DNA of 64,000 nucleotides from Treponemataceae bacterium (GTDB taxonomy: Bacteria; Spirochaetota; Spirochaetia; Treponematales; Rectinemataceae), in contig CAXXVZ010000005.1 in NCBI GenBank assembly GCA_963678065.2, forward strand, positions 736,001-800,000, given 5' to 3'. The notes beneath the pieces are model-generated. The model did no database searches, was not told the DNA's origin, and was given only the letters and a program-made list of their open reading frames with translations. Positions 28,775 to 49,216 of the stretch are shown piece by piece. How positions within the stretch are numbered: position 1 is the stretch's first letter; every line of letters begins with the position of its first letter. The translations under genes were made by a program, and so were the position numbers.

Positions 28775-30169
28775 GAGGCTTTTTCAAAACTTCGTAATCC
28801 GCTTTGTAAAAAAGCGAGTTATTGTAACTGAAGCTTCGTTTTTGCACAGTAAAAATTACATGTGCAGTAAAAAGGGCTCTCTTTTCAGTGCAAAAGATGG
28901 ACTACCCCTACAAAATCCGGTTCTGCCGGATTGCCCGGTTACGATTTCTGCAGTTCGGGAAGGATGAAGTACTGCAAAGCCTTGACGGCCGCCAGAACCA
29001 CTACCCCGCACATGAGCAGGAATGATACTTTCTCAAATCCCCGTACAAATATCTGACCCGGTATGAGCCAATCCTTCAAATGCGAGTTTGCACGTTCAAC
29101 CGTTGTCCTGATTGTGTACCGCTCCTTCTGTGACGGCGAAAATGGTTCCCGTTCCGTCCCACGACGCGTATTCCGATCAATCAGCGGAACACGCCCACGT
29201 CCCTGGATATAGGTCGCGATGGGATCCGCATCGTATGCAGCGTCCATGACTGAATACAGATGTCGGACCTTTTTCTCTGTTATCTTTTCCAGAGGAATCG
29301 CTACTTGCGAATCATGAACATTGGCGCCGGTTACGACTGCTGAAATAGGGAATCCTGTGTCGCTGACATCAAGGTGCAACTTGTATCCTTTCCATGTTTC
29401 CCTATTCCCCTGGCTGTTCTTCTTGCATCCCCATGCACAGTCTTTGGATAGTTCTGACAAGGATTTCCTGACGCTTTGGCCGACTTGCTTTTCTATCTGT
29501 GTCGGCTCCTTCACAGGCCGAACTTCTCCTTTTCGGGGACGACCTCGTTTCCGTTGCGGTGTCACGGAAGAAACAGCTTCACGTTTGGCAGGTACAGGTT
29601 TTTCTCGTGCTCGTATCTCCGTCGCATCCCGATTTATGTGTCCGACGATATGGCCGTCATGACAATCCTTCACCATGGTATTCAAAGTCTGAATCAGCGG
29701 AGTCTTTTTTGAAAACTCCGCGTAGCGACGCGAAAAGGTCGCAGAGCTTGGAACGGAGGTGAAGCCGCATATCCTCCGCAGATTCGGATCGTTGATCAGC
29801 CTGTTCCTAAGGTCCGTGACTGTCGCTATGTGGAATACCGTTCGGGCGAAAAACGCCCGCATGATCGGTTCGTTCCGATGTGGAGGACGGCCAGTCCGTG
29901 CACATGGTGATGTAATCCGTGGCTGAGCATCTTCAATGACTCTGAGCAGGGCGATAAAAAAGCGATGCTCGTCGGTGAGATATTCTTCGAAACATCGCTG
30001 GATATCGTAGGAAATCGGCAAAAGTATTTGCGCTCCGCCCAGTATTTCTGGTATGGTTTTCATCAGCGGGGGCTCCTCCTGGTGACGTTTGTGTTGCAAC
30101 ATCATCATACAGGTTCTGTCCCCGCTTTTCATTAAAATTCGTTCATCTCATGACTTTTGAAAGAGCCTC
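28775..30169 (-). mobile_element. 1395-bp DDE IS (IS5/IS1182-like or ISNCY), copy 1; transposase 28939-30132
   Basis: IRs GAGGCTTTTTCAAAA/TTTTGAAAGAGCCTC; TCTA duplication; DAT, GYKLH, MDAAYD, VERANS motifs. Confidence 0.88.
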
Positions 30170-33020: not shown

Positions 33021-33158
33021 GACTAACGTTCTGCCTGTTTGCGACGATGGCGTGAGCATCGGCGAACGCCATTGTGCCTGAGCGGAATGAGCAAAGCGAG
33101 TGCAGCGATGGCCGAAGAGGGAGCTTGCGACCGATGAGCGTGAACAGCGCTGTTAGTT
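33021..33158 (-). repeat. attC site, subtype C
   Basis: gttctgcctgtttgcgacgatggcgtgagc...gtgaacagcgctgttagtt. Confidence 0.85.
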
Positions 33159-33285
33159 GCAGTCGTGACCTTCGAGCGCGCTTGGATGGGGAGACTTGTC
33201 TCTCCATCCAATACTCTATCTTGCGCGCGTTCTTCTCTTCTTCTTCTCTTACCCTTATTTTTTTTCTTTCACGATTGCAACTAAC
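33152..33285. repeat. ORF-less structured cassette, copy 2
   Basis: 134 bp (T-run 2 nt longer). Confidence 0.9.
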
Positions 33286-33417
33286 GTTCGCCTGCCTACG
33301 ACGTTGGCGAGCATCGGCGAGCCACAATGTGCCTGAGCGGAACGAGCGCATGCGAGTGCAGCGATGGCCGAAGAAGGAGCCGCAGGCGACTGATGAGCGT
33401 GGGCAGTGCTGTTAGTT
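33279..33417 (-). repeat. attC site, subtype A
   Basis: Consensus repeat. Confidence 0.85.
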
Positions 33418-35215: not shown

Positions 35216-35800
35216 TCATTTGTACAAATGAAGCTTTATTTTATGTAGTAGATTTTTGCCTAAATAATACTTCTGTATTGAGTCAGTTATATCATTTTCG
35301 CTTAATATATACTGATTAGAAAATGGCTTATCCGTAAGCAACTCTTTAAAAGTAAAATGAAAATCTTTTAATTGTTTTGTATCATCCATTAATGCCTTGT
35401 TTTGTATATTGCAAGTTTTTAGGTAATCATCCAAATTGTTGATTTCAATAGAAGCAATTTTAAATATTTTTATAAGAAATCTTTTCTCCGATTCATTAAG
35501 ACTTCTGCCTTTTAATATATCGAAAAATGATATTATTTTTCGATATATTCCTATGATTGAATCAAGACCTAATTGTATAATCTCCACTTTTTTTGCGTGG
35601 CTAGATTCTTTCCCTACCAGCAATATTGTTAAGAAAAATCCAAATATGCAAGTAACCAGTATATTTATAACATCCATAAAGCTATAGTTAAAAAAACTAT
35701 TCGAAACTTGACCCCATTTGCTAGCTGTCACATATGCCATGACTCCAATCAAAATAACTAGAGAGACCATAATAAGAATCTTTTCCTTTCTGTTACTCAT
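35216..35800 (-). CDS. Hypothetical protein with two N-terminal TM helices
   Basis: 194 aa ORF, third gene of a coupled operon. Confidence 0.7.
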   Translation of the reverse strand: MSNRKEKILIMVSLVILIGVMAYVTASKWGQVSNSFFNYSFMDVINILVTCIFGFFLTILLVGKESSHAKKVEIIQLGLDSIIGIYRKIISFFDILKGRSLNESEKRFLIKIFKIASIEINNLDDYLKTCNIQNKALMDDTKQLKDFHFTFKELLTDKPFSNQYILSENDITDSIQKYYLGKNLLHKIKLHLYK

Positions 35801-35801
35801 T

Positions 35802-36116
35802 TTATTCTGCTCGTTTTATATAACTTAAGACTTCTTCTATCAGTAACGGATCTTCATCAGACACAAGATCAATTCTAGATAATATCTTATCACTTCCATA
35901 TCTTCTGGCCAAACCTCCAAATACTTCTTCCAAAAATGCAGTTGAATAGCCTTCCACCCCATCAAGATCTATAAGTATTTTCTCTATATTTACAGTATCC
36001 TCAAAAAGTGGAACAAGAAACGTGTCTCGAAATTCCTCCCCCGAGTATTCTCCATCTCTCGAAAATCTTGCACCCGGTGTTTGTGAAAAATCGCGAGCAA
36101 TACTAATTCGTTTCAT
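35802..36116 (-). CDS. STAS-like DUF4325 protein
   Basis: DFSQTPGAR..SGEEFR..IDLDGVEGYSTAFLEEVFGGL. Confidence 0.8.
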   Translation of the reverse strand: MKRISIARDFSQTPGARFSRDGEYSGEEFRDTFLVPLFEDTVNIEKILIDLDGVEGYSTAFLEEVFGGLARRYGSDKILSRIDLVSDEDPLLIEEVLSYIKRAE

Positions 36117-37104
36117 CGCAAAACTCCTTAACAAAGTCCCAACAAATTAGCGTACCATGAAATTCAGATTCAATATTTATCACAGTATCAGTATCAACTA
36201 TATACATTCCTTTACGAGATATCACATTCAAGTTTTTTACTAATCCTTGACCTACAAGGTTTTTTATTTTTGGTAAACCTTTCCCTCTATATGGAAGTTT
36301 TGTCTCACTTCTATTTTTTTCCGAGAATGCAGATTTTATTAAGCTTGCATCATCTCCGATAAAATAATCGGGGATTTTTTTTCTAACTGTCGCAGGTATT
36401 CCTCGACCATTATCTAGTAGAGCAAATTGTATTTTTTCGCATTCCTTTTTATACAAAGCCATTAACCACCATCGTTTGCTCTTCATGCCTTCATAAGCAT
36501 GTTCTCTTACATTATTCATTGCTTCCATAATTACAGCATATGTGGCTTTAGTCATCAAGTTTCTTTCAATTTTAAATTTTTCTCTTACATAAGCTAAGAC
36601 AGCACCAGCTTCTGATGAAACAATCATATCATTTGTCCTGATTGATAATACTTCTTCAGTATCATGGTGAGTGTAAGAGCTATTTACATATTTAAAAAAC
36701 CCTGAAGATAAGAATACTTTCTTACAATAATTATCCTTTGGACAATTTCCAGATAACTTGTTTTCTTTATTATTGTGAGAGGCACTATCCATACGTGACA
36801 ACAAATATAAAACAGAATCAGGTGTTATTCTTTCAATATTTAAAAGATTCGCGTATGTTCTTCTTCCATGCCAAGCAGAACTATCTACTTTGTTCAAAAA
36901 TGATATTGTTTCTTCATAGTTTTCAATAATACTGAATACTTTAGGCGCCAGATATTCTTCTCCGACATACTTTCTGAAATTGAAAGTATAATTCTTGCCA
37001 AATCCTGTGATGTGATTTGTTTTAGTTTGTAGCTGAAAAACTGCTTTCTTTGATCTTACTGCATTGAAAGCTTTAAACTTATCACTTTTGTATAATAACT
37101 TCAT
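36103..37104 (-). CDS. HATPase (GHKL) domain protein
   Basis: EAMNNVREHAY, DNGRGIP, RGKGL, GTLI boxes. Confidence 0.78.
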   Translation of the reverse strand: MKLLYKSDKFKAFNAVRSKKAVFQLQTKTNHITGFGKNYTFNFRKYVGEEYLAPKVFSIIENYEETISFLNKVDSSAWHGRRTYANLLNIERITPDSVLYLLSRMDSASHNNKENKLSGNCPKDNYCKKVFLSSGFFKYVNSSYTHHDTEEVLSIRTNDMIVSSEAGAVLAYVREKFKIERNLMTKATYAVIMEAMNNVREHAYEGMKSKRWWLMALYKKECEKIQFALLDNGRGIPATVRKKIPDYFIGDDASLIKSAFSEKNRSETKLPYRGKGLPKIKNLVGQGLVKNLNVISRKGMYIVDTDTVINIESEFHGTLICWDFVKEFCDETN

Positions 37105-37132: not shown

Positions 37133-37267
37133 GCCTAACGTTTTGTGCCTCTGACGTGTGCGACCGCACAGGCGGACGCACATGTGCCTGAGCGGAATGA
37201 GCGCAAGCGAGTGAAGCGATGGCCGAAGAGCCCTGAAAGGGCGATGAGCAGGGGCACGGTGTTAGGC
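37133..37267 (-). repeat. attC site, subtype B
   Basis: gttttgtgcctctg...caggggcacggtgttaggc. Confidence 0.85.
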
Positions 37268-37493
37268 GACGTGTTGTTTTGCGTCTTTTTTGGTAAACTT
37301 TTGTGTGATCTTCATTTCTTTGTTGAGTCGTATATTCTCATAGATTGATAATTTCATCATCCGGTATTCATCTTTTACTATGATATTTGTGATTAACATT
37401 GGCTTAAGCTGGGAGCATCCACCGCGAAGCGGTTGGCGCACTTTTTGCGTGATCTTTTCGCAAAAAGTGTGACAAAGAAGCGACTCAGCTTGA

Positions 37494-39412
37494 GTCGAGT
37501 AGGCCGGGGGATTTTCACCCCCAGCCTCTCACGGAACCGTACGTGATAGTCTCCCATCATACGGCTCTTCACACTTTACCATTGGCATACCATCCGTGCT
37601 CCCAGTGAATGAACAAGTGCTTTTTGCTGTCAGCCGCATTCTTCATGAGTTCGGCGGCCTTCATCCAACTCCTCTTCAGGCGCTTGTATGTGCACTTTGC
37701 CCATTTTACGAGGATTTTCTGGAACATGCAAAAGATACCGTACAATGCCGATGGCCGAAATCTGCCATAATAGGCAAACCATCCTGCAAGCTTCGAGTTG
37801 TATAGCTTCGACAAACTTTCGAGGGTCGCTGTCGCCGCCCTCTGGATTCGCCACGTCCGAATAGTGTCCTTGATCGCCTGCTCGGATGTTTTGCTGATCG
37901 CCGGGGTGAAAGCCACAAAGAGCTTCCCATTCTTCCCCCTCGCCGTGCGCGGCCTGAAGGTGAAGCCGAGAAAGTCAAACGTGGTCCTTTCATATACTCC
38001 CCTGCGGTTCCTATCCTGGCAATACACGATTTTCGTCTTCTCCGGATGTACTGTCAGCTTGCACTCGGCCAAACGCAGTTTGATCTCTTCCAGGAGATTT
38101 TCAGCCTCCGCCTGTGTCCGGCAGTGGATGACGATGTCGTCAGCATAGCGCTCGAAGGGGTTCCCCCCGTGTCTCCGTTCCATCCACGTGTCAAAGGCGT
38201 ACTGCAGAAACAGGTTTGCCAGGAGCGGGCTTATCACCCCGCCCTGTGGCGTTCCCGTATCCCTCTCAAAGATCATTCCCTTGTCGTCTTCTGCCGGGGC
38301 TTTGAGCCATCGCTCGATGTATAACTGAACCCACTCAGGCGGCTTGTGAAACTCCACCGCCTTCATCATGAGTTCCCAATCGATGGCGTCAAAGAACCCC
38401 TTGATGTCCAGATCGATCACCCAGTCATATTTCCAGCACCGTTCCCGTGCTTTCGCCACGGCGTGATGGGCCGATTTCCCAGGACGATACCCAAAGGAAT
38501 CATCATGAAACATCGGCTCCACCATGGGCTCAAAACACAACCGCACGGTCATCTGCGCGATTCGATCCGCAACAGTCGGTATTCCCAACGGTCGCGTTCC
38601 TCCGCTCTTCTTCGGAATCTCCACCCTCCGCACCGACTGTGGATGGTAGCTGCCAGAGGACATCCGATTCCAGAGCTTGTAGAGATTCTTCGAGAGATTC
38701 CCGTCAAACTTCTCAAGCGTCTGTCCATCGATCCCCGCCGCCCCATCGTTCGCCCGTACACGCTGGTATGCCTTCCATACGAGTCGCTTCGGTATGTCAA
38801 ACGGTTTTGCCTTTCCCATCCGTTCATCCTGTCGCCAGTTGGCGTTCAGAAAAGACACGAGTATGTCGGCCCCTTCGCTCCATTCCCGTTACAGGAACTT
38901 CATCACTACTACGAGCCGGCGCCATCCTGGCGACGTCCCTGTGCTCCGCATCGGTACTCTCCCTCTCGTCGGGTTCGCCGCTTGAGGTTCTCCCTTCACA
39001 TCGGAACGACAGGTTCCCACGTTCCATACAACAGCCCAGTATCAATTCACGCCGCCTTAATGCCGGAGGCCGTCCACCCAGTACACAGGTTTCCCGATGG
39101 ACTCTTTTCACAGCGCACTAGCTAATCACTGCTTTTGACCTCATCAAACTCACTTTCGACACCTCATCGGTCGGTTCACTTTCGTTCGCCTCCTGATACC
39201 ACACCTGACCCCGTCATGCGGGGGCCTTTTAACCAGATACGTTCACCACCGGGACTCTTTATCCAAGCAGCTTCTGGCGGTTTGAGACCGGCTCCTGCAA
39301 GCAGATCCCGAGGCTCACACCAGCTACCCCGGTGTTTCCTCATCTGTCGTACAGCTCTTATGACACCTCCTGAATCACTATTCAAAAGTGCCCATCAGAT
39401 TTCGTGGCACAC
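37494..39412 (-). mobile_element. Group II intron (RmInt1-like)
   Basis: 5' GTGTG; domain V GAGCCGTATGATGGGAGACTATCACGTACGGTTC; domain VI ending CTACTCGAC. Confidence 0.92.
37569..38819 (-). CDS. ltrA: Group II intron reverse transcriptase/maturase, no endonuclease domain
   Basis: LWNRMSSGSY, RPLGIPTVADR, GTPQGGVISPLLAN, RYADD. Confidence 0.93.
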   Translation of the reverse strand: MGKAKPFDIPKRLVWKAYQRVRANDGAAGIDGQTLEKFDGNLSKNLYKLWNRMSSGSYHPQSVRRVEIPKKSGGTRPLGIPTVADRIAQMTVRLCFEPMVEPMFHDDSFGYRPGKSAHHAVAKARERCWKYDWVIDLDIKGFFDAIDWELMMKAVEFHKPPEWVQLYIERWLKAPAEDDKGMIFERDTGTPQGGVISPLLANLFLQYAFDTWMERRHGGNPFERYADDIVIHCRTQAEAENLLEEIKLRLAECKLTVHPEKTKIVYCQDRNRRGVYERTTFDFLGFTFRPRTARGKNGKLFVAFTPAISKTSEQAIKDTIRTWRIQRAATATLESLSKLYNSKLAGWFAYYGRFRPSALYGIFCMFQKILVKWAKCTYKRLKRSWMKAAELMKNAADSKKHLFIHWEHGWYANGKV

Positions 39413-39439
39413 AGCAGTTGTTAGGTGCTTCCGTTTTAT

Positions 39440-39823
39440 CTATACTTCACTTTTTATTTTAAAAATTAGTTTTTCAATACTAGTATCCTTCTTAAAAAAA
39501 CTAATAATTGATTGTATTCCTGAAATAACAAACCATCCTCCAAATATTATTGTTAATATAATAAATATTGAATAAACATTTTCCTTCGATAATCCAAATA
39601 TACTTTTAAATTCTGCTGTAAAAAATGACTGAAAAAATGAAACAAAAAATCCAAGTGGTATACTCCAATTGCGACTAGCATTTATTTTATTCTTGAAATC
39701 GTTAAGTTTAAGCTTAAGTCGATCTTCGTTAATTTGAACTATTATTTGGTCAGTATTTGAAATAACTGTAGTATTTACTGATGCTATTATTTTGCCATTT
39801 TTCATCCCCATTTTATTCTCCAA
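39440..39823 (-). CDS. Hypothetical 2-TM membrane protein
   Basis: 127 aa ORF coupled to the upstream gene. Confidence 0.65.
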   Translation of the reverse strand: MENKMGMKNGKIIASVNTTVISNTDQIIVQINEDRLKLKLNDFKNKINASRNWSIPLGFFVSFFQSFFTAEFKSIFGLSKENVYSIFIILTIIFGGWFVISGIQSIISFFKKDTSIEKLIFKIKSEV

Positions 39824-40142
39824 CCATCATTTGAATATCTAATTTGATAGTTGTACCGATTTTATATGTTGCCGGAAGCATGTAGACCTTTTTCCCTCTA
39901 AACGTTCCGAATTCAATCGGATCTGGTAAAGTAATGCCTAAATGACTATTCCAATTTTCAAATATTATTCTTGGATTTGGTTTATCTGGTACTATAGTCA
40001 TCTGCTGAATTTTTTCATTATTTACAAATTCAATTATTGCAGTAATTTTCCAATTATATATTTTAAAATCAATTTCAGCCTTTTGATTTTCAGGAATAAT
40101 TATACTTATAAACTGTATTACAGTCCATTTTCCAACTTTCAT
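39813..40142 (-). CDS. Hypothetical protein (DUF6864-like)
   Basis: GGAG RBS; F.NW.S.LG....P..FG pattern. Confidence 0.6.
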   Translation of the reverse strand: MKVGKWTVIQFISIIIPENQKAEIDFKIYNWKITAIIEFVNNEKIQQMTIVPDKPNPRIIFENWNSHLGITLPDPIEFGTFRGKKVYMLPATYKIGTTIKLDIQMMVGE

Positions 40143-40308
40143 TCTAACTCCTTAAGTCAAACTTATTCAATATTTTCGGTTTATTAATGCACCTAACAGC
40201 ATTTATCTTGATACATATAAAATGATTTGTAGAATACTTTCTGAGATCGTACAATACGCGAAAGTTGTATGCAATCTGCCTTACAAGGATCGCGCAAAAC
40301 AATATGTC

Positions 40309-40449
40309 GCCTAACGTTCGCCTGCCTACGACGTTGTGGCGAGCATCGGCGAGCCACAATGTGCCTGAATGGAACGAGCGCATGCGAGTGCAATGAAGGC
40401 CGAAGAAGGAGCCACAGGCGACTGATGAGCGTGGGCAGTGCTGTTAGGC
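40309..40449 (-). repeat. attC site, subtype A
   Basis: Consensus repeat. Confidence 0.85.
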
Positions 40450-40587
40450 GACGTGTTGTTTTGCGTCTCCCCTTAAAAATCTATAAATTCTTTTTATCCA
40501 TTCTCTAATCATTACGATATAAAAAATAATATAATTTATTATGCAAAAACAATGGATTAATGTTAAAGAGTACTATCCATTATACGC

Positions 40588-41316
40588 TTAACCGGTGAAG
40601 CATACGATAATTGTAACAATAATATTGTACTCAAATAAAGCACTTAAAAGCATCTGATAATATCGTTTTATGGTCACCCTTGCTGTCATATAACTTTTTT
40701 CAAATGTATCACTAACAACTAAAAGAGCTGATACAACAATATTATACTTTTGAGCATAAAAGAAGAATGAAGAACATTCCATTTCTAGTCCTATTAGGTC
40801 TTTATCAAATACTTCATATTTCGGTTGTGCAGTAACACAGGGGACTGATACTGTTTTTCCTTCTAGATATTTTATATTCCTTTCACGTAGTTTTCGTTTT
40901 ATTAAGTTGCTTTGTTCTGAATCTGGAAAAACGTATTCAGTATCATGTAAAAAGTTTAGGACCCCTTCCAGTGCTTGTACTTTATTTGGAATAATAAAAT
41001 CGCCAACATCTAGTGATTTTTCTATGCCAAAAGCAGATCCAAAAAAAGTAATTTTCTTGACATTCCCATCATTTAGTACTGCCATTAAATCAATCATAGA
41101 TGCAGCACCATAAACTTGGAACAATAGTAAATATTCTATACCGTTATGTTTGGCAATTACTCTTTCAAAATGACTATATTCATGAAAAACGACTGTATCA
41201 AAATTTGAAAGTATACCATCAATGAATGAATGCTTCGATGAGCCAGCAAAAAGAAAACAATCTGAAGGTAAGGTATCTCTATCAAAAAAACTAACTGACC
41301 ACTTACCCATTTTCAT
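40588..41316 (-). CDS. Nucleoside phosphorylase-like protein (PNP/UDP family)
   Basis: FFGSAFG..VGDFIIP..GLEMECS..LLVVSD. Confidence 0.75.
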   Translation of the reverse strand: MKMGKWSVSFFDRDTLPSDCFLFAGSSKHSFIDGILSNFDTVVFHEYSHFERVIAKHNGIEYLLLFQVYGAASMIDLMAVLNDGNVKKITFFGSAFGIEKSLDVGDFIIPNKVQALEGVLNFLHDTEYVFPDSEQSNLIKRKLRERNIKYLEGKTVSVPCVTAQPKYEVFDKDLIGLEMECSSFFFYAQKYNIVVSALLVVSDTFEKSYMTARVTIKRYYQMLLSALFEYNIIVTIIVCFTG

Positions 41317-41517
41317 CTCCCAAATAGCGTTCAAAAATCAAGTTATTCTATATAGTTACTACAATATATAACATGGTAAAATATAACACATTGCGCCGTA
41401 AAGCATTTATACTGATACACATAAATTGATTTGTCGAGTATTTTCAAAAAATAATAAAAGGTCCATTCAAACGGCCAGAATGGAAAATCCTACCAGGTCC
41501 GCGCAAAACAATATGTC

Positions 41518-41660
41518 GCCTAACGTTTTGTGCCTCTGACGTTTTGGCCCGCATCGGCGGGCCGAAATGTGCCTGAGTGGAGTGAGCGAATGCGAGCGAA
41601 ACGATGGCCGAAGAGTCGCCAGCTTCGCTGGCGGCGATGAGCAGGGGCACGGTGTTAGGC
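41518..41660 (-). repeat. attC site, subtype B
   Basis: Subtype B ends. Confidence 0.85.
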
Positions 41661-41671
41661 GCTGTGCTAAT

Positions 41672-43862
41672 TTATCTTAGTTTTTTGATCACTTCATCAT
41701 AGCAATACTCAGCATATTTTCTTGCAAATATTTTAATCATTTTTTCTCTTTTTCGATTTGTTAAATTTTTTGTTTCATCAAGTATTGATTGAGCAATTAC
41801 CATTTCATTTTCAATATCCTTTTCACATAATTGAGTACAATAATTAACTATCTGTAGAGGCTTTTTCAAAACTTCGTAATCCGCTTTGTAAAAAAGCGAG
41901 TTATTGTAACTGAAGCTTCGTTTTTGCACAGTAAAAATTACATGTGCAGTAAAAAGGGCTCTCTTTTCAGTGCAAAAGATGGACTACCCCTACAAAATCC
42001 GGTTCTGCCGGATTGCCCGGTTACGATTTCTGCAGTTCGGGAAGGATGAAGTACTGCAAAGCCTTGACGGCCGCCAGAACCACTACCCCGCACATGAGCA
42101 GGAATGATACTTTCTCAAATCCCCGTACAAATATCTGACCCGGTATGAGCCAATCCTTCAAATGCGAGTTTGCACGTTCAACCGTTGTCCTGATTGTGTA
42201 CCGCTCCTTCTGTGACGGCGAAAATGGTTCCCGTTCCGTCCCACGACGCGTATTCCGATCAATCAGCGGAACACGCCCACGTCCCTGGATATAGGTCGCG
42301 ATGGGATCCGCATCGTATGCAGCGTCCATGACTGAATACAGATGTCGGACCTTTTTCTCTGTTATCTTTTCCAGAGGAATCGCTACTTGCGAATCATGAA
42401 CATTGGCGCCGGTTACGACTGCTGAAATAGGGAATCCTGTGTCGCTGACATCAAGGTGCAACTTGTATCCTTTCCATGTTTCCCTATTCCCCTGGCTGTT
42501 CTTCTTGCATCCCCATGCACAGTCTTTGGATAGTTCTGACAAGGATTTCCTGACGCTTTGGCCGACTTGCTTTTCTATCTGTGTCGGCTCCTTCACAGGC
42601 CGAACTTCTCCTTTTCGGGGACGACCTCGTTTCCGTTGCGGTGTCACGGAAGAAACAGCTTCACGTTTGGCAGGTACAGGTTTTTCTCGTGCTCGTATCT
42701 CCGTCGCATCCCGATTTATGTGTCCGACGATATGGCCGTCATGACAATCCTTCACCATGGTATTCAAAGTCTGAATCAGCGGAGTCTTTTTTGAAAACTC
42801 CGCGTAGCGACGCGAAAAGGTCGCAGAGCTTGGAACGGAGGTGAAGCCGCATATCCTCCGCAGATTCGGATCGTTGATCAGCCTGTTCCTAAGGTCCGTG
42901 ACTGTCGCTATGTGGAATACCGTTCGGGCGAAAAACGCCCGCATGATCGGTTCGTTCCGATGTGGAGGACGGCCAGTCCGTGCACATGGTGATGTAATCC
43001 GTGGCTGAGCATCTTCAATGACTCTGAGCAGGGCGATAAAAAAGCGATGCTCGTCGGTGAGATATTCTTCGAAACATCGCTGGATATCGTAGGAAATCGG
43101 CAAAAGTATTTGCGCTCCGCCCAGTATTTCTGGTATGGTTTTCATCAGCGGGGGCTCCTCCTGGTGACGTTTGTGTTGCAACATCATCATACAGGTTCTG
43201 TCCCCGCTTTTCATTAAAATTCGTTCATCTCATGACTTTTGAAAGAGCCTCTGTATTTTAGTTTTTTTCTTCTCTTGTCTTCTTTCTATTAATATAGAAC
43301 TAACTACTGTCGATGACACTAAAATCATAAAATCGAGCAATTTTATAGCTACATCAGCAAAATCACCGCCTCTTTCCCGTTGTATTAATTGTTCTGCTCT
43401 TTTAATTTTATCTATCAATTGCTTGTTATTTTCATAATCAGAAAATATTACTTTTCTCCAATTAACTTCAATATCAATAATTTCTATTACATCAATATCA
43501 GTTTTTAAATAATGCGATTTTGCAAAGTCTATCAGTTGTGGTACTTTTATATTTTCAATATAATTATTAACATCAGATTGCATATACTTTACAATATTTT
43601 TATAATAGTAATTACCACAGTATTTGCATTTTTGACACAACTGAATATCAAATATCTTCAGTCCATTAACAAATTCCATTTCTGAATATTTACAATCTAT
43701 TGCATCTTCAGTGATTTTAATAATAAGCTTTTCATATTGCTCCATTACTACTTTTTCGTTTGCGTGCTTTTCTATTAATATTCTTTCATTCAATACAACA
43801 AATTCTTTTGCTTCAATTGTTTCAAATTCTTCAAGATTTGTACCACAATTTTCACAACTCAT
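41672..43862 (-). pseudogene. Hypothetical Cys-motif protein interrupted by an IS
   Basis: Removing the IS and one TGTA joins ..KKTKIQ to IVNYCTQLCEK.. in frame. Confidence 0.75.
41857..43251 (-). mobile_element. 1395-bp DDE IS, copy 2; transposase 42021-43214
   Basis: Same ends and identical protein to copy 1; TGTA duplication. Confidence 0.9.
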
Positions 43863-47908: not shown

Positions 47909-49216
47909 GGCATCGCGCCAAAATAATTTGACTGCTTTTATTCTTTAGTCGGAAGCAAAGCATAGTTCCAATCGCCATGGAATTTTGCCTGCTTAATGTT
48001 CAGGGCAGCAAGTTCTTCATCACTAACCTTGATCCCGAGTGGATACGAACCTGAATCCAATTCTGCGCATATTTTCAGTCCCGCTGCAGTGGTTGTATTT
48101 GCAATCAATTGAATAATTACCTCGTGGCTAATCAACGGTCGGCCTCGCCAGTTCTGAGTGATATGGCAAAACATTCGGTGCTCGATTTTATTCCATTTGC
48201 TGGTACCTGGTGGAAAGTGACACACGTGAATTGACATTCCAAGCTGATTCGCTAATTCGTGCAATGCAAGTTTCCAGAGCCGACATCGACTACCGTTGCT
48301 GCCACCACCATCAGCGGTAATCAGCAATTCTTTTGCAGTACGATACCGTTTCACACCCATTTTTTCCCACCAACGTCGGATGGCTTCGGCAGCAAAATGT
48401 GCGGTATCGTGGTCGATTCCTACACTGACCCAGCCCTTGTTTTCGCTTATATCGAAGACTCCGTATGGTATGGCCTTGCCCAGCTCTGTATCAATGAAGT
48501 CATGAACCATTACAGATTCCGGTTCACCTTTGGGACGCCATTCTCGTCCTCCATTTCGAAATTCCCCAATCAATTCTTTCTTTTTCGTATCTACCGAGAT
48601 AACTGGATTCCCTTTACGCTGAAACCGCTTGACCATGGTGTTGATATACTCAAACTGCGCATTTCGATCCGGATGCGACGTTCCTTCTTTGGTCTTCCGA
48701 TTGCTCTGTAGACTGTAGCCTTCCGCGTTCAGTAGCCGTCCAACCGTGCGCGGGCTTACTGTGTGCCCTTGTCGTGTAAGCGTATCTGCAAGATTACTGG
48801 TGCTCAGGCACGTCCACTGTAGTGGCGACTCTGGATCACCCCGTGTCATTGGTTCAATTAAGCTCGTAAGTTTTTCCCTTAACTCGGGATCGTTTTCACT
48901 GCATCGTTTTCTTCCACCGCCTGGGAAACGTACGCGAGTGCGTATCTTCTCGTGCGGATTACTTTCGCGTAATGCCAGCTCATTCATTCCTTTGCGTATT
49001 GTGTTCGGCGACATCTTAATCGCGGTATTGACTGCCTGTATCCCACCACGACCATACGCTCTTGCTTCAGCCGCCGCCCATTGACGTCGCATTCGTTCAT
49101 CCATCATGGGCACAAGTGCGTTGTACTTGGAAGCTATTTGTTTTACCGTTGCCTGATCTTGCATACTTCATTATAATATAATCAATATATTAGTCAAGTT
49201 ATTTTGACGCATTGCC
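47909..49216 (-). mobile_element. ISAzo13-family element; transposase 47938-49164
   Basis: ISVDTKKKE, ADGGGSNG, SKWNKIEHR; imperfect IRs; TTA duplication. Confidence 0.9.

Follow-up and report, generated by a model that had tools for sequence, protein, structure and literature searches.

Carrier cassettes with an internal attI-like site nested in a non-classical cassette array of a Treponemataceae bacterium

Introduction

Integrons are described with one attI per platform, and in those of Treponema the integrase gene intI points toward attI (PMC3607928). Attachment-site sequence inside an array can be active, as the delta-attI sequence of integrons of classes 1 and 2 is functional with IntI1 (PMC12901181). 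Here we describe carrier cassettes, found in a 64,000-nucleotide (nt) stretch of Treponemataceae bacterium DNA (GCA_963678065.2, contig CAXXVZ010000005.1, positions 736,001 to 800,000; hereafter the window), in which an attI-like head is followed by cargo with a canonical attC or its remnant, the whole forming one cassette of a much larger array. With the classical platform (PMC3607928) the carriers share the site layout, the G|TT crossover, canonical cassettes downstream with a cognate R'' and the orientation; they differ in that the site is part of a cassette belonging to another array, exists in several copies, has no adjacent intI and shows no Pc promoter that a scan would support. To judge from their sequences, they are probably carriers of a non-classical array whose attI-like head would be loaded in trans by IntI, and which would be moved whole by the array's own recombinase. 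Throughout, C3, C4 and C5 denote contigs of the source genome, and the window is C5:736001-800000.

Results

A sequence-only reading of the window had claimed that the cassette end at 37261 pairs with 40315 and so encloses a two-gene cassette with a foreign attC. Of 24 nt, that end shares 21 with 40315 but 7 with 37391-37397 and 10 with 40197, and the inner R'' (39420-39428) exactly complements the lone site at 40189-40197, as had been noticed. The nested cassette is real and well bounded. We call the carrier M1; its parts are as follows.

37133..37267, minus strand: outer long-type attC-like site closing M1, with R'' at 37261-37267
37261..40315, minus strand: carrier cassette M1, 3,055 nt, a whole unit of the outer array whose ends pair at 21 of 24 nt
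37261..37397, minus strand: M1 tail, 137 nt, beginning with GTTAATC (right half of the internal site) and finishing in the family terminal repeat
37391..37493, minus strand: right part of the inner canonical attC (remainder of L'', then loop, L' and R'), resembling classical attC
37494..39412, minus strand: group II intron, 1,919 nt, within L'' of the inner attC and oriented as the cargo genes
37569..38858, minus strand: intron reverse transcriptase/maturase, 429 amino acids (TIGR04416)
39413..39428, minus strand: inner canonical attC, left part (R'' and the start of L''), with R'' at 39420-39428
39440..39823, minus strand: cargo gene 2, 127 amino acids, likely a membrane protein, no family above cut-off
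39813..40142, minus strand: cargo gene 1, 109 amino acids, family match to DUF6864
40189..40197, minus strand: inner cassette start (core site), complementary to the inner R'' without mismatch; the crossover is predicted to follow the G at 40197
40198..40220, minus strand: attI-like core of the M1 head, TTAT-N10-ATAA-N5 before GTT, spaced as the classical attI at C3:98290-98315
40198..40315, minus strand: M1 head of 118 nt, made up of the terminal repeat, a variable middle and the attI-like core; it shares 111 of 118 nt with a carrier head on contig L017
40309..40449, minus strand: outer long-type attC-like site between M2 and M1

The inner unit does hold two genes and an attC foreign to the outer array, although that attC is not intact, being split by the intron, which the earlier reading had passed over, into 37391-37493 and 39413-39428. 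With the intron omitted it can be folded, and the inner unit has the R''-L''/L'-R' attC with foldable bottom strand of a canonical gene cassette. The leader shared with the neighbouring cassette also holds up: 40198-40241 and 41402-41445 are alike at 37 of 44 nt, against only 16 of 44 on the cargo side. This neighbour, M2, consists of the following parts.

40443..41524, minus strand: carrier cassette M2, 1,082 nt, ends pairing at 21 of 24 nt
40582..40601, minus strand: remnant of a canonical attC that has collapsed, losing its centre so that L'' is joined to L'; it overlaps the final codons of the cargo gene
40588..41334, minus strand: M2 cargo gene, family match to the nucleoside phosphorylase superfamily (PF01048)
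41402..41524, minus strand: M2 head, 123 nt, attI-like core followed by TTT in place of GTT
41519..41660, minus strand: outer long-type attC-like site upstream of M2

M2 had been put forward as a sibling of M1 with the same terminal repeat, a homologous leader and different cargo, all of which stand; its insertion point, however, reads TTT and not GTT, and a canonical attC in collapsed form lies at the end of its cargo. Since TTT follows the core, the M2 head is likely no longer a recombination site. That M1 and M2 stand in tandem does not reach significance (P = 0.11).

The array around the carriers is large and has its own recombinase. A profile of the long repeats locates 178 long-type attC-like sites genome-wide. 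Of these, 177 occupy the C5 minus strand from 754.7 to 931.4 kb, where 171 cassettes were delimited. Their cognate ends match at a mean of 18.4 of 24 nt, versus 11.1 of 24 for non-cognate ends, so that co-oriented cassettes lie between palindromic sites with cognate ends; these outer sites retain R''/R' core sequences and fold as long hairpins. A tyrosine recombinase of 392 amino acids (C5:931,894-933,073) heads the array, which begins just downstream in the same orientation. The enzyme is without the IntI-specific insertion (a gap of about 35 residues relative to the C3 IntI) and scores 197.3 bits with TIGR02249, compared with 450 for the C3 IntI and a cut-off of 265; by insertion and score alike, the outer array does not have the integrase of a classical integron. 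The sole IntI above that cut-off in the genome lies at C3:97196-98137, with a classical attI at C3:98313 on its 3' side in the same orientation, a first cassette with a cognate R'' and canonical attC sites beyond. Within the big C5 array, a complete canonical attC occurs only inside a carrier. In genome G327, from another family of the same order, a protein 43% identical to the C5 recombinase heads a similar array (L108).

Five of the 171 cassettes, together 4% of the array, open with the same 22-nt terminal repeat, and all five have the core. Two lie in the window (M1 and M2) and the others at 839.2, 854.8 and 877.7 kb of C5 (M3, M4 and M5, respectively), M3 and M4 being near-duplicates. Their heads measure 98-127 nt and end in the same core, distinct heads being alike at 24-29 of 33 nt. 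A sixth core copy stands solo on C3 at 2,358,247 (C3:2358224-2358249), ahead of a cassette with a canonical attC, and a matrix scan of the genome found no further copy beyond these six.

Each of the five carriers contains a canonical attC or what is left of one. Arm matrices made from eight classical attC sites, all on C3, were run over the whole C5 array, and their best matches fall in the carriers: the top three of the left arm in M5, M3 and M4, with M1 sixth, and the top two of the right arm in M1 (37391..37493, best of 177,685 positions) and M2. The inner site is complete apart from its intron in M1, collapsed in M2 and represented by the left arm only in M3, M4 and M5. The right part of the M1 site matches classical C3 attC at 78-83% over about 55 nt. 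The M1 intron has a reverse transcriptase open reading frame (37569-38858; 421.6 bits with TIGR04416, cut-off 300) and domains matching Rfam RF00029 and RF01999. A copy with 94.7% identity occupies the equivalent attC position in the classical array (C3:118121-120039), which ties the inner cassette to the classical pool. The same attC type with an intron-free junction is present in run X6. The intron family sits in canonical attC just after R'', within L'' and co-oriented with the cassettes, with six 5' ends found (C3 118121, 121079, 125593 and 849865; C4 118170; window 37494-39412).

Is the head core an attI? Its layout, TTAT-N10-(A/C)TAA-N5-GTT, has the spacing of the attI beside the C3 intI. 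A matrix built from five heads finds its best non-training match in the genome at a palindrome immediately following the intI stop, and places the true attI crossover 13th among 10,534,132 positions. The reverse matrix was made from the two classical attI-type sites of the genome only (C3:98313 and C3:866928, the latter without adjacent intI), with GTT excluded; it ranks M5, M1, M4 and M3 within the best 8 of the array's 2,358 GTT positions, and M2 sixth among all 177,672 of its positions. A comparison with the true attI had been called for, and it shows the five heads nearer to the classical attI of the separate integron (17-19 of 33 nt) than to the presumed own attachment site of their array (12-16 of 33). 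A GTTRRRY-type core with complementary R'' is exact in M1 and present with at most one mismatch in nine in L017B (described below) and M5; it is not clear in M3/M4, and in M2 and L017A GTT is lost. Because the genome's own attI matrices match in both directions, and despite the failure of foreign ones (see Discussion), the core probably falls in the same class as this genome's classical attI, although its exact partner integrase may be another.

Several further comparisons stand outside this argument. A matrix made from the sites in L023 and L024 ranks the heads top and was rejected as circular, those loci having been found with the carrier pattern. A loosened pattern matches the true attI with one mismatch, which is not independent because the pattern was widened after the site had been seen. 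A TTA(T/C)-N10-TAA palindrome follows 7 of 58 intI loci, a count made without a control run and only a lead.

The suggestion that the heads bear a promoter fared poorly: a scan for the sigma-70 consensus gave 7 promoter-like sites versus 7.9 expected, none of them in a head on the cargo strand. The proposed role as a secondary attachment site and adaptor between two systems is otherwise supported as far as sequence goes, by the two-way likeness to the own attI, the unrelated cargo at the same base described next and the presence of two recombinases with two kinds of attC.

Empty or differently loaded versions had been named as things to look for, and one of the latter kind exists. In a one-genome-per-species collection the exact pattern had one match, L017, a 3.1-kb contig with two tandem carriers, A and B. 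The head of L017B is identical to that of M1 at 111 of 118 nt, and at the same base it bears an unrelated cargo of two genes (local alignment score with the M1 cargo 27, shuffle mean 26.8), which removes the objection that homologues might always carry the same cargo. This cargo ends in an intact canonical attC that has a cognate R'' and folds into a single hairpin with extrahelical bases, after which come GTTAATC and a 130-nt tail, just as M1 has GTTAATC within its 137-nt tail after the cargo; the predicted empty site is therefore head|GTTAATC. L017A has ATT at the site, a gene with a RelA/SpoT domain and no evident inner attC. The record is labelled as an archaeal bin, while its outer sites match those of the C5 array; mis-binning is therefore suspected, and no inter-domain transfer is claimed. 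The L017B tail is nearer to that of M2 (0 of 400 shuffles) than to that of M1. The tail itself was considered as a fossil cassette, for which a cognate R'' lends no support.

The attI-like motif also heads cassettes outside carriers, at C3:2358247, in L024 and in L107, with two less clear cases in L023. The fetched flanks of these solo sites hold no integrase gene.

L023:2684-2709: solo attI-like site with cassette
L023:3484-3509: solo attI-like site with cassette
L024:1244-1269: solo attI-like site with cassette
L107:1308-1333: solo attI-like site with cassette
C3:2358224-2358249: solo attI-like site with cassette

By eye, the L024 site adjoins a tRNA-like sequence. Wider searches yielded little. 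A pattern search of 60 relatives gave 0 matches; a DNA search of 400 genomes of the order gave weak matches in 9, all 10 loci of which were motif-checked without a carrier being found; across 400 genomes of the phylum the loosened pattern gave 8 single matches versus 5 for a control, all of the 8 outside any cassette context; viral contigs gave 0, 0 and 4 matches, one of which heads a cassette; and plasmids gave 0. Many of the searched genomes are incomplete and repeat arrays assemble badly, so that these negatives mean not found, not absent.

Other elements accompany the two arrays. One short repeated cassette of 128-135 nt, below usual gene size (e.g., window 33157-33286), accounts for 50 of the 171 C5 cassettes, also stands first in the array and frequently occurs in tandem. 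Nine of the 171 (e.g., C5 930247-931314, 924666-926021 and 900274-901217), together with L135, form a second family, possibly another nested type, in which different genes lie between a GC-rich hairpin some 40 nt in from the start and a related one close to the end. The cassette downstream of M1 (window 35216-37104) has three genes, one for a STAS-like DUF4325 protein. Array cassettes are interrupted by two copies of a DDE transposase gene (window 28939-30132 and 42021-43214) and by an ISAzo13-type transposase (window 47938-49164), and insertions cut several outer sites. On C3, an element with a tyrosine recombinase in a 329-amino-acid frame and a transposase-like gene, possibly of IS91 type, has three copies (853.4-854.4, 865.9-866.9 and 2,358.9-2,361.5 kb). 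The GTT with which each copy begins falls precisely on the crossover of a canonical attC or attI-type site, and its other end is an attC-like palindrome, so that the element itself looks like a cassette; at 2,358 kb an identical cassette is duplicated on either side of it.

Discussion

Two nested levels, a fixed insertion base, an attI-like layout and varied cargo behind near-identical heads are all legible in the sequences described above. The mechanism that we think probably accounts for them has four steps. An IntI-catalysed attI x attC recombination would load a canonical cassette into an empty head|GTTAATC-tail site; the non-IntI tyrosine recombinase of the C5 array would then recombine the outer attC-like sites and so move the loaded carrier; recombination at the inner sites of different carriers could exchange heads and tails, as the six distinct carriers suggest; and decay of the inner attC or of GTT (M2, M3/M4, M5) would turn the cargo for good into a cassette of the outer system. 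Head-tail exchange would account for a head 94% identical beside a far less similar tail. Taken in full, as a family of mobile "mini-integron" cassettes with a working attI, IntI loading into a non-IntI superarray, head and tail reassortment and attC decay that creates cassettes, this picture is tentative, and we would give it somewhat less than an even chance.

A number of observations weigh against loading in trans at an attI-like head. The likeness of the heads to the genome's own attI is moderate, at 17-19 of 33 nt, and foreign attI matrices rank the GTT-bearing heads only 349-876 (matrix of 8 sites) or 101-430 (12 sites) among 2,358. At 58 other intI loci there was no convincing match at a cassette start; the head matrix does peak on the crossover in the 600 nt after intI, a score that 22 of 200 shuffles reach. 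No intI was found directly beside exactly this site, so the cognate integrase may be another: the carriers are on C5 and IntI is on C3, and L017, L023, L024 and L107 gave no integrase match. Two of the six distinct carriers have lost GTT, and none of the collections searched yielded an empty one. L017 shares the outer attC type and may derive from a close relative, and the tails of M1 and L017B are only weakly alike (62%; reached by 11 of 400 shuffles, or 139 of 500 under another scoring). From a single stable backbone one would not expect such weak likeness; the exchange of heads and tails between inner sites would explain it. Finally, the related array of G327, with 33 outer sites located by pattern, contains no nested canonical attC, and nesting does not appear to be general to this array type.

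Four other explanations deserve consideration. The carriers could be frozen relics, the outer system having captured a classical attI with its first cassette once or a few times, after which the site fell into disuse and the carriers decayed. The missing empty carrier, the diverged tails and head middles, the decayed inner attC in M2, M3/M4 and M5 (and none evident in L017A) and the solo site with its cassette on C3 would all fit. We nonetheless regard this as unlikely: heads identical at 111 of 118 nt precede unrelated, complete cassettes at the same base, with GTTAATC after both, and the same terminal repeats occur in all carriers. Near-identical heads with unrelated cargo imply that exchange postdates the present head sequence. 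Alternatively, the head may be kept as a promoter or protein-binding site, with GTT merely a secondary hot spot of the attG type for IntI. Insertion there needs only GWT (10.1101/2022.09.11.507474), the foreign attI matrices do not pick out the heads, and M2 and L017A, which have lost GTT, still preserve the core; yet the likeness to the genome's own attI type spans about 23 nt upstream of GTT with identical spacing, the cargo strand of the heads is without a promoter consensus, and the motif heads cassettes in unrelated contigs, all of which make us think this quite unlikely.

One enzyme might instead serve both levels, whether the array recombinase loads the inner site or IntI handles the outer ones, giving nesting without a bridge. 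Integrases less than 40% identical can share attC sites (PMC12901181), and the outer sites do keep R''/R' cores and fold as long hairpins. We judge such sharing improbable, however, because the head is nearer to classical attI-type sites than to the array's presumed own attachment site, complete canonical attC is confined to a carrier within the big array, and 177 of 178 long sites belong to the array headed by the non-IntI enzyme. As for misassembly, or chance similarity among AT-rich leaders, the region is rich in repeats and no single contig from four runs covers the whole stretch. Yet run X4 has a contig over 39920-40314, where head and cargo of M1 meet, with 0 differing letters, which disposes of a misassembly at that junction (X4 is possibly the same strain, and therefore bears on the assembly and not on spread); M2 is present in runs X6 and X10; the same design recurs in L017; and the six head-type sites score 51.6-61.6 bits (five of them being training sites) against 15.9 for the next. 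We attach almost no probability to an artefact of this kind. Joints in X6 such as 37265-40311 were considered as excision products and rejected as repeat artefacts, having sides of less than 30 nt and unknown middles.

The origin of new array cassettes is a long-standing open question. The carriers range from those whose inner attC is intact to those in which it has decayed, a gradation that suggests one way in which such cassettes may arise. If the mini-integron picture is true, they would provide a route by which the creation of cassettes can be observed, as well as a link between two gene-capture systems. Should the docking site itself be a mobile cassette, many insertion points would exist deep in a 177-kb array, and cargo could pass between two recombinase systems. 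A practical consequence is that annotation from attC to attC splits such carrier units wrongly.

In a full-text literature search that excluded most subscription journals, we found no description of an attI-bearing carrier cassette nesting one cassette system in another; the parts are known, and it is their arrangement that is new and was not found in print. With the promoter-bearing, gene-less cassettes of the Vibrio superintegron (10.1101/2023.11.21.568050) the carriers share non-coding sequence, a possible role in expression and residence in a very large array; the accessible part of that source describes no internal docking site, and in the carriers the scan does not support a promoter. 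Like attG sites (10.1101/2022.09.11.507474), they involve insertion outside a platform and an attC that may later decay, but whereas the attG consensus is only GWT, the carriers are attI-like over about 23 upstream nt and reuse the same base from one carrier to the next. Integron-associated group II introns (PMC7923331) likewise lie in or at attC, and cases of the same orientation are reported; IIC-attC introns, however, sit on the bottom strand, opposite to the genes, while the M1 intron is co-oriented with the cargo and splits L'', and in this respect does not fit that group. Finally, the delta-attI cassettes of integrons of classes 1 and 2 (PMC12901181) share with the carriers an attI-derived sequence inside an array. 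In the delta-attI case, the attI piece replaces the 3' attC of a cassette of the same integron, a replacement that the carriers do not have: their attI-like piece lies 5' of the cargo, both outer and inner attC are kept, another recombinase system is involved, and a complete cassette sits inside.

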